NCBI RefSeq assembly: GCF_003334385.1 | Contig: NZ_QOWN01000046.1 | DNA: 34,434 nucleotides | Direction: 5' to 3' (one strand) | DNA from: Escherichia coli | Lineage (GTDB): Bacteria > Pseudomonadota > Gammaproteobacteria > Enterobacterales > Enterobacteriaceae | Part shown: in pieces, positions 23,614-24,339 of the stretch | How the letters are laid out: each line of letters starts with the position of its first letter | How positions within the stretch are numbered: position 1 is the first letter of the stretch | Notes under the pieces: generated by a model | The model's input: only the letters and a program-made list of their open reading frames with translations | What the model was told of the DNA's origin: nothing | Database searches by the model: none | Position numbers and translations under genes: made by a program

Positions 23614-24261
23614 TTACTCAAGATCTTCTTCGTCAATCTCCAGCCATCCACGATAAGCTGACTCTGTATCTTTCACATCGTTTTGAGTCATATCAGCATT
23701 GCGTAGAAAATTAAAAGCTGCCGCACAAAATTGATCTTCCAGGTATTTGAAATACTCCAAACCTATATCCAGCCCCAGCTGCTTTGGCGAGAGAATATCA
23801 ACTGAAAATGCAGCCATATAGTCACCGTCATCACTTTCCCAGCTATTGTCACCAAAAATCACGCAAGTAAAACTCTCGGGTACGAAATCCAGAGGGAATG
23901 AGCCAGTTACAGTCCGTTCTTTGCCCTGATACTCTATTTTTGCAGTGACATAAATATCATAATCGCTGTTTTTTGTTTTAGGATCGAAACGGTTTTGCCG
24001 TAAAATTGTGCATACAGCGTGCAGTTTTCCCGTACCTTTAAAATTTAGCTCTCTCATTTCAGCATAGTAAGGGAATGTATTGTCGTATTTAGCAGGAACA
24101 GGCGGTAATTCACGATTGACGGATAACAAGTTGTTGTCAACAACCTGCCAGCCAGCACGCAGCCATTTAGTTACCTGTTGGGGGGTGACTTTAAGGGCGC
24201 TAGCGAAATCCCGCTGAGTGTTGTAATACAATTCAATATATTCTTTTAGTGAAAGTTTCAT
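23614..24261 (-). CDS. HTH (Cro/YdaS-like) DNA-binding protein with a C-terminal domain of unknown function; start at the internal ATG about 24261
   Basis: AAGGAGAT ribosome-binding site 7 nt before ATG (MKLSLKEYIELYYNTQRDFASALKVTPQQVTKWLRAGWQVV...); the listed ORF extends further upstream without an RBS. Confidence 0.55.
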   Translation of the reverse strand: MKLSLKEYIELYYNTQRDFASALKVTPQQVTKWLRAGWQVVDNNLLSVNRELPPVPAKYDNTFPYYAEMRELNFKGTGKLHAVCTILRQNRFDPKTKNSDYDIYVTAKIEYQGKERTVTGSFPLDFVPESFTCVIFGDNSWESDDGDYMAAFSVDILSPKQLGLDIGLEYFKYLEDQFCAAAFNFLRNADMTQNDVKDTESAYRGWLEIDEEDLE

Positions 24262-24295
24262 GTAATTATCTCCTTGATTTGATGAAATAATTATA

Positions 24296-24339
24296 ATCAT
24301 ATTTTGCTTATTTTTCAATGAAAATAAGCAAAATATGAT
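24296..24339. promoter_or_regulatory. Inverted repeat with 19-bp perfect arms and 6-nt spacer upstream of the HTH gene; candidate operator
   Basis: ATCATATTTTGCTTATTTT-TCAATG-AAAATAAGCAAAATATGAT; it directly abuts the point where IS2 homology begins. Confidence 0.4.

Follow-up and report, generated by a model that had tools for sequence, protein, structure and literature searches.

An Aca5-family repressor homolog carrying a large orphan acidic domain on an Escherichia coli conjugative plasmid: a candidate self-repressed anti-defence cassette

A locus that raises a question

What is the role of a plasmid gene whose product starts as a DNA-binding protein and goes on as a domain without recognisable kin, and what is the perfect inverted repeat that sits in front of it, pressed against a broken insertion sequence (IS)? 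The question comes from a stretch of 34,434 nucleotides of Escherichia coli DNA (RefSeq assembly GCF_003334385.1, contig NZ_QOWN01000046.1), named here the window; homologous loci and proteins are designated by L and P numbers. A first description of the locus, made from the nucleotides alone (the sequence-only reading), had seen a protein that begins with a helix-turn-helix (HTH) and continues into a long C-terminal domain of no recognised kind, and so it is: the open reading frame (ORF) is real, and its 215-residue product joins an HTH of the anti-CRISPR-associated 5 (Aca5) family, residues 1-57, to an orphan domain. Taken as a whole, we read the gene, with modest confidence, as encoding an Aca5 autorepressor fused to an acidic domain of 157 residues that is a candidate anti-defence payload.

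This placement matters. Aca genes are the main handle for the discovery of anti-CRISPR (Acr) proteins by guilt by association, through the genes that lie upstream of a small aca. As the search looks upstream of a small gene, it would pass over an Aca5 to which a candidate payload is fused. To be sure, the HTH and the repeat belong to a system already known, and the protein itself figures in a list of Aca5 homologs. The novelty lies in seeing that it has a large orphan domain attached and appears to form with it a one-gene, self-repressed cassette. Since the family is Aca5, the functional reading moves from 'some regulator' to an anti-defence locus, and the protein can reasonably be regarded as a candidate anti-defence effector of a kind not yet described.

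One gene under its own promoter

The gene, its expression signals and the two parts of its product are placed as follows.

23614-24261, minus strand: coding sequence of the 215-residue protein, stop codon included (ORF list and sequence); it is RefSeq WP_021515401.1.
24091-24261, minus strand: residues 1-57, Aca5-family winged HTH DNA-binding domain (hhalign, BLASTP and a published list).
23617-24090, minus strand: residues 58-215, orphan acidic C-terminal domain.
24270-24275, minus strand: ribosome-binding site AAGGAG, 8 nt before the ATG (sequence and alignment).
24290-24318, minus strand: sigma-70 promoter, with -35 TTGAAA (24318-24313), a 17-nt spacer and -10 TATAAT (24295-24290) (promoter scan).

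The ORF begins with an ATG at 24261 on the minus strand. Its translation is identical to that of WP_021515401.1 (100% identity across the 215 residues in tblastn), labelled 'hypothetical protein' in RefSeq, with identical genes at loci L001, L003 and L005. Nine homologous upstream regions were aligned, and the ribosome-binding site is unchanged in all nine. A longer form of 255 residues, starting at a GTG and reaching 24381, was set aside: it would span both the promoter and the junction with the IS, and RefSeq uses the 215-residue form instead. The promoter matches the consensus at 11 of 12 positions, with a predicted transcription start near 24283, and it is the same in L003. In the window the gene makes up a monocistronic unit: downstream of it comes a ParE module in convergent orientation, and the minus strand offers no other ORF of at least 40 residues there.

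An N-terminal domain of the Aca5 family

Generic domain models say little about this protein. On its whole length Pfam gives weak matches only (HTH_3, E 0.026; YdaS, E 0.27), which agrees with the Cro/YdaS-type HTH first proposed, the actual family having been missed: matches to the small phage repressors of that type (HTH_3, YdaS_toxin) are sub-significant, and the specific relation is to Aca5. Searches of Pfam, NCBIfam, PADLOC and PHROGs with the whole protein returned nothing beyond weak HTH matches; PHROG 10103 (E 1e-6) is an unnamed HTH family, and the sole match among the PADLOC defence-protein models, PDC-M64C (E 0.016), falls on the HTH. The decisive lead came from a homolog, at L004, that adjoins a gene of the AcrIF11 family: in Enterobacterales, AcrIF11 genes are typically followed by aca5 (PMC7648647).

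Three lines of evidence then place residues 1-57 in the family. Aligned by hhalign with nine published Aca5 sequences, taken from the supplement of PMC9410906, the protein matches over residues 4-57 with 98.6% probability (E 1.2e-15). BLASTP finds 46% identity to the Pectobacterium Aca5 WP_109463512.1 (E 4e-13). Finally, WP_021515401.1 itself and about 13 close variants, the L004 protein among them, are among the Aca5 homologs tabulated in PMC7648647 (Supplementary Data 9), a paper whose main text mentions neither a fusion nor a C-terminal domain anywhere; in the literature searched, no Aca5 fusion is described. The gene product is an Aca5-family HTH homolog. The domain is basic (isoelectric point, pI, 9.5), well modelled by AlphaFold2 (predicted local distance difference test score, pLDDT, 74-89) and constrained, with a ratio of nonsynonymous to synonymous substitution rates (dN/dS) of 0.02-0.11.

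One property of Aca5 is at variance with the window gene, and another is seen at a homologous locus in its stead. At 215 residues its product falls outside the criterion of a small single-domain protein, the published range being 51-88 residues (PMC9410906); among the best 120 hits of an Aca5 profile search over 5.8 billion proteins, all have 91 residues or fewer and none has such a C-terminal domain. The position behind an acr gene is missing from the window, where the gene has its own promoter; it is found at L004.

Two predicted operators mirrored around the -35 element

The repeat upstream of the gene resolves into smaller units, inverted repeats here named IR1 and IR2.

24295-24340: perfect dyad 20/6/20, made of IR1, IR2 and five symmetric inner bases per arm (repeat search and promoter scan).
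24293-24311: IR1, promoter-proximal Aca5 operator, with core AATCATATTTTGCTT at 24295-24309 (match to the published consensus).
24326-24340: IR2, distal Aca5 operator AAGCAAAATATGATT (search for AATCA-N5-TGATT).

The sequence-only reading had given the dyad as 19/6/19, at 35-78 bp from the start codon. The perfect dyad is real; its arms (24295-24314 and 24321-24340) are in fact 20 nt long, fully complementary around a 6-nt loop, and it lies between 34 and 79 nt ahead of the ATG. In 34 kb an inverted repeat of 20 nt without mismatch is far beyond chance. The -35 hexamer straddles its centre and the proximal arm is the promoter spacer.

The known Aca5 operator has the consensus ATAATCAATTTTTGATTATA, also written ATAatCaa(N3)TtGatTAT, and is located between -35 and -10; a second inverted repeat upstream of the -35 is found in 6 of 15 acr-aca5 promoters (PMC9410906). 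Here IR1 fills the space between the -35 and the -10, which it overlaps. The 19-nt consensus ATAATCAA-N3-TTGATTAT is matched at 24293-24311 with two mismatches, the sole match in the window at three mismatches or fewer, where 0.17 would be expected. IR2, whose sequence read in reverse complement is exactly that of IR1, stands upstream of the -35, the two centres being 31 bp apart. Each of the two is a small palindrome AATCA-N5-TGATT, and the large dyad is, as the letters read, two palindromic Aca5 operator sites mirrored around the -35. The only operator-like site elsewhere in the window, at 31532 with one mismatch, is within chance expectation. That two copies of a published operator type sit on the gene's own core promoter is the ground for reading the dyad as its autoregulatory operator, as was first suggested and as we predict to be very probably the case.

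Comparison with a diverged paralog (the second copy at L001, also found at L012; 92% amino acid identity) separates what is kept from what is not. These promoters, named type B, retain the 15-bp elements AATCATTATTTGATT and AATCAAACAATGATT, perfect in AATCA-N5-TGATT and 32 bp apart, with a core promoter TTTACA-17-TACAAT of the same layout, and the 17 nt between the sites are not kept. As for a divergent promoter under the same dyad, the intact loci offered weak candidates only (9 of 12 positions), none of them convincing. L001, a plasmid of 67 kb (NZ_CP076712.1), holds both paralogs, at 2704-3351 and 6180-6827, one with the 46-bp perfect dyad (type A) and the other with the type-B pair of sites, and cross-repression between them is possible. 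Upstream of its second copy stands a remnant, 'ATGAAATAA', resembling the start of the AcrIF11-family gene of L004.

What then of the IS that touches the dyad? Two features describe the contact.

24339-24347: junction microhomology TTGCTTGAG, 9 bp; homology with the plasmid backbone ends at 24347 and homology with the IS starts at 24339.
24348-24976, plus strand: 5'-truncated IS2-like (IS3 family) fragment, the right-hand part of about 638 bp with the element end, 96.7% identical to chromosomal copies.

IS2-like homology thus spans 24339-24976, and to say that it starts exactly at the dyad edge was essentially right: the overlap covers the last two nucleotides of the dyad and seven beyond. At L014 the IS match (1201-1839) can be set against a transposase coding sequence at 575-1803, and it starts about 626 nt into that sequence; the junction joins the backbone to the interior of the IS, not to one of its ends. 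It falls near -64 from the predicted transcription start. Intact loci show a matching -35 and -10, and so too the two operators, the ribosome-binding site and the coding sequence; only the sequence upstream of the distal operator has been replaced in the window. The suggestion that the insertion altered regulation is therefore not borne out, all the regulatory elements being as in intact loci and the piece being an internal 638-bp fragment at the point of contact.

The intact loci are informative in another respect. In megablast searches of complete E. coli genomes and PLSDB, gene, promoter and dyad occur together on about ten E. coli plasmids and on 14 plasmids of PLSDB, and all these matches end at window position 24347. 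Uninterrupted loci (L001, L003, L005 and L022) have about 60 more conserved bases past the dyad and then differing genes, some loci with an exc1 remnant, others with a CopG gene and, after it, stbB/parM. The operator reading also survives the objection that the dyad might be the end of a mobile element: the same dyad is found in uninterrupted plasmids with different flanks, and the paralog keeps the sites only.

The slot of an aca gene in related plasmids

Plasmid pE203449_57 (L004, NZ_JBRERN010000004.1) codes for a homolog 92% identical to the window protein. There, at 4307-4807 on the minus strand, a gene annotated 'hypothetical protein' (WP_032291175.1) specifies an AcrIF11-family ADP-ribosyltransferase, as judged from the NCBIfam AcrIF11 equivalog model (91 bits, for a cutoff of 50) and from the AcrF11 structure 6kyf in the PDB (E 3e-8). 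It lies between stbB/parM and the long Aca5 homolog, directly upstream of the latter and on the same strand, and it overlaps its start, the last 19 or so codons of acr running through the -10 region and the 5' untranslated region of the aca gene. The canonical arrangement is seen in pSE11-2 of E. coli SE11 (L015), where an AcrIF11-family gene (113 bits) is followed by an Aca5 of 65-68 residues, under a promoter TTGCAG-[AATCATTTTTTGATT]-TACAAC. The acr genes of the two plasmids are 85% identical in amino acids and 92% in nucleotides up to codon 147, past which L004 changes to the -10 region, the 5' untranslated region and the coding sequence of the long protein. This switch indicates that the long protein fills the slot of a normal Aca5.

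An orphan acidic domain

The 157 residues that the protein has in addition to a canonical Aca5 are acidic (pI 4.3). An exhaustive phmmer search of 1.84 billion representative proteins found no homolog of this domain outside its close family, which is at least 66% identical and comprises four clusters at 90%, one of them a pseudogene. No match to it was found in Pfam, NCBIfam, PADLOC or the PDB sequences, nor were structural relatives found with models that are of low to moderate confidence only. In the AlphaFold2 model of the full protein, the part beyond the HTH is drawn as a beta-meander of five to six strands followed by a long helix and an acidic tail predicted to be disordered. Remote-homology search and structure prediction, which the sequence-only reading had recommended for the C-terminal domain, thus brought no relatives of it to light.

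The domain is nevertheless no drifting appendage, its dN/dS of 0.14-0.29 indicating purifying selection. In the tail the ratio is 0.3-0.9, yet the terminal EEDLE is conserved. This pentapeptide (residues 211-215, window 23617-23631) is kept even in a variant of 85% identity, after some 20 nearly neutral residues with dN/dS up to 0.9, and it could be a short interaction motif.

Several candidate relatives were rejected. P0031 (a tetratricopeptide-repeat protein, E 4.6e-4) and P0009 looked spurious. P0004 (166 residues), which might have been a stand-alone version of the domain, turned out, on its contig of 575 bp, to be a pseudogene disrupted by a stop and a frameshift. With the C-terminal domain of P0026 there is in common only a 16-residue motif, AE(M/I)RELN, with an hhalign probability of 2.5%.

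Fusion as such is not restricted to this family. Other HTHs of the Aca5 type are joined to unrelated domains at either end (P0022, P0026, P0028, P0027 and P0035); the remote fusion P0026 has its own pair of AATCA-N5-TGATT sites on its promoter, and P0022 adjoins an Aca2_YdiL gene. In P0008, P0010, P0013 and P0019 the Aca5-type HTH is duplicated in tandem within one polypeptide of 123-135 residues, and these proteins may be single-chain 'dimers'. An ORF of a Salmonella plasmid (L016, 3309-3869 of NZ_CP075133.1; WP_049824885.1, 186 residues) resembled another fusion and was discarded: a perfect Aca5 operator, AATCAAATATTGATT, stands at 3450 within the annotated ORF, 50 nt before the part coding for the HTH, which suggests that the start is over-extended. 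The real gene is probably a short Aca5 annotated from too far upstream. An abortive-infection family gene adjoins this ORF.

Payload, regulator or toxin

In the mechanism that we propose, the plasmid would enter a naive cell where the repressor is absent, and the strong promoter would fire. As the protein builds up, dimers of its HTH would settle on IR1, in the spacer, and on IR2, upstream of the -35; once bound, they would exclude RNA polymerase and the gene would be shut down. Such burst-then-off logic is that of acr-aca operons and has been demonstrated experimentally for each Aca family tested, Aca5 included (PMC9410906). The payload would be the C-terminal domain, acting against defence (possibly as an anti-CRISPR) and carrying its regulator on the same chain. 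The parts of this proposal differ in strength. Autorepression by predicted binding at IR1 and IR2 is highly likely, judging from the family and its sites. An effector role for the C-terminal domain is tentative. A payload is its most likely use inasmuch as the unit is monocistronic and a canonical Aca5 needs only about 60 residues; and proven HTH-effector fusions (AcrIIA1, AcrIIA15 and AcrIF24), added to these two arguments, favour an anti-defence payload (precedents in PMC9638941, PMC9001735, PMC10901769 and PMC9410906). In its sharpest form, held more loosely still, the proposal is that the domain may be a new anti-defence effector of unseen fold, either an anti-CRISPR directed against E. 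coli type I-E/I-F or an inhibitor of some other system, fused to its own Aca5 repressor.

Were this true, the protein would be the first self-repressing Acr-Aca5 fusion, and enterobacterial conjugative plasmids would carry a single-gene 'burst-then-off' counter-defence cassette, with P0026, P0022, P0028, P0027 and P0035 marking a wider unexplored pool of effectors. The domain would found a new inhibitor family acting in E. coli, IncI-complex and IncF conjugative plasmids would be seen to hold self-limiting cassettes of this kind, and a screen of all HTH-fused Aca homologs would suggest itself.

A number of observations weigh against this proposal. The C-terminal domain resembles no known Acr or anti-defence protein that we could find, the model of the full protein is of moderate quality (pLDDT 62), the HTH being its good part, and that of the domain alone is unusable (pLDDT 38). 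The gene lies between replication and partition regions, not in a recognised anti-defence cluster. It is often lost or damaged, one relative being a pseudogene, and about 50 plasmids of PLSDB, pAA of strain 042 included, keep only its last 63 codons (residues 153-215). This remnant (window 23400-23806; L002 4001-4408) is cut off by a 'bacteriocin immunity protein' module, the annotated start of which overlaps it on the opposite strand. Plasmids of the L005 type, hits H2-H6 among them, have lost 6 bp (GATTAT) where IR1 meets the -10 (L005 about 4895-4925), and with them the end of IR1; what is left, TTGAAA-11 nt-TATAAT, is probably a promoter-down allele, and L011 shows a similar loss of 5 bp at the same place. 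No recognisable Aca5 operator is found upstream of the L004 operon, which may be unregulated or rearranged, and the ordinary aca slot that the protein occupies there, behind a real acr gene, would suit a plain regulator equally well. Solo aca-like genes without acr are common, so that a payload is not required (PMC9410906).

The last points lead to the rival that survives best. The protein could be a solo repressor of the Aca5 type, or an 'anti-anti-CRISPR' silencing the acr-aca5 promoters of competitors, its C-terminal domain serving for oligomerisation, cooperative binding to two sites, stability or sensing. Besides the position in L004 and the wide distribution of solo aca-like genes (PMC9410906), the spacing of the operators speaks for it: they are three helical turns apart, so that a bridging or tetramerising domain would make sense, and the domain is tied to no effector family. 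By contrast, canonical Aca5 proteins of 51-91 residues repress two-site promoters without any such domain; 157 acidic residues under purifying selection are much for a dimerisation module; the window promoter drives this gene alone; and the only other operator-like site in 34 kb is within chance. We deem this explanation doubtful, though a serious one; should the domain prove purely regulatory, what remains is an ordinary autoregulated Aca5 locus. In either case the dyad finds its explanation, and the IS2 junction leaves it undisturbed.

Much less probable is a toxic or abortive-infection-type module, in which the HTH would autoregulate a toxin or an effector of plasmid stability or exclusion. 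The surroundings are rich in RelE/ParE, stbB/parM adjoin the gene in relatives, and a strong promoter with tight autorepression suits a dosage-sensitive product; against this, there is neither a match in PADLOC or NCBIfam nor a partner antitoxin gene, and the HTH family is specifically anti-CRISPR-associated, with one homolog operon-linked to acr. Finally, a purely structural dyad, whether a hairpin terminator or insulator against upstream transcription or the site at which a mobile element ends or recombines, is very improbable: the scan does score it as terminator-like on the gene's strand (a 20-bp stem followed by ATAATTATTT), the RNA hairpin is predicted to be stable (-21.7 kcal/mol, z = -6.95, a fold that none of 200 shuffled sequences equalled) and an IS fragment abuts it, but the stem has only three G-C pairs and would hold the gene's own -35 and spacer, in type-B paralogs the 15-bp palindromes are retained without complementarity in the 17 nt that separate them, the consensus to which the sites conform is that of an operator validated by experiment, the dyad recurs in intact plasmids with its 60 or so conserved neighbours and no transposase nearby, and what the IS2 piece brings to the junction is internal to the element, not its end.

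Likeness to known systems

Against the founder of the family, the Pectobacterium Aca5 WP_039494319.1 of 60 residues, the likeness is in the N-terminal 57 residues, homologous at 43-46% identity, in the operator core AATCA-N5-TGATT with IR1 in the spacer and IR2 upstream of the -35, in the mobile elements of Enterobacterales as hosts and, for one homolog, in the place behind an AcrIF11-family gene that the founder also has. The differences are the length (215 residues against 51-91, with the acidic C-terminal domain), the monocistronic gene without an upstream acr, and operators that are exact mirror copies and so make a perfect dyad of 46 bp.

Anti-defence proteins that combine regulation and action are known elsewhere. 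With its HTH and its separate second domain in one polypeptide, the window protein has the architecture of an Acr-Aca fusion, autorepression being here predicted, and homology of its second domain to a known Acr family was not found. AcrIF24, the Pseudomonas type I-F Acr-Aca fusion, likewise unites an HTH and a second domain, with Acr activity. Its HTH lies C-terminal in the published structures. No homology of the window protein to AcrIF24 was detected. AcrIF24 is a dimer, of about 230 residues, the HTH of which represses the acr promoter while its Acr activity targets the type I-F complex (PMC9001735, PMC9638941). AcrIIA1 and AcrIIA13-15, the anti-Cas9 proteins of Listeria and Staphylococcus, place an N-terminal HTH autorepressor before a C-terminal effector, the order that is proposed here, and the C-terminal domain of AcrIIA15 is an acidic mimic of double-stranded DNA (PMC10901769, PMC9410906). 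There is, however, neither sequence similarity nor detectable structural similarity between them and the window protein, and the HTH family, the hosts and the CRISPR types differ.

The plasmid around the gene

The DNA of the window comes from a conjugative E. coli plasmid belonging to the IncI complex and carries type IV pilus genes. Its other features of note are these.

18291-18441: Rfam PK-repZ pseudoknot (168 bits), just upstream of repA.
18454-19326: RepA, IncFII family.
20499-20780 and 22837-23389: two RelE/ParE-type toxin modules, upstream of the locus.
20820-21668: DnaQ-like 3'-5' exonuclease with an N-terminal extension of about 100 residues.
25104-25586: hexapeptide-repeat acyltransferase.
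25772-26056, minus strand: truncated IS3-family orfA.
26169-27185: IS3-family transposase ORF.
28529-29161, minus strand: bacteriocin-export-type ABC ATPase (L_ocin_972_ABC, E 2e-55, below cutoff).
32769-33902: pieces of IS3-family transposase.

The PK-repZ pseudoknot assigns the replicon to the IncI complex (I1/K/B/O/Z), despite the 'IncFII family' label of its RepA; in or near the gene locus no Rfam family was found. For the 87-residue protein paired with the second ParE toxin, NCBIfam offers no matching model. The IS2-like fragment belongs to a mosaic of IS debris that covers 24339-27185, beyond which a minus-strand gene cluster (27305-32612), the ABC ATPase included, has several ORFs without a family match.

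On the other side of the gene, just past its 3' end, plasmid pSW071620 (L003) has at 3780-3995 a unit of about 200 bp with inverted repeats of about 35 bp (GGGGTTTGAGGGCCAATGGAACGAAAACGTACGTT), which marks its divergence from the window at 23576. These repeats, which we take to resemble the ends of Tn3-family elements, frame what may be a miniature inverted-repeat element.

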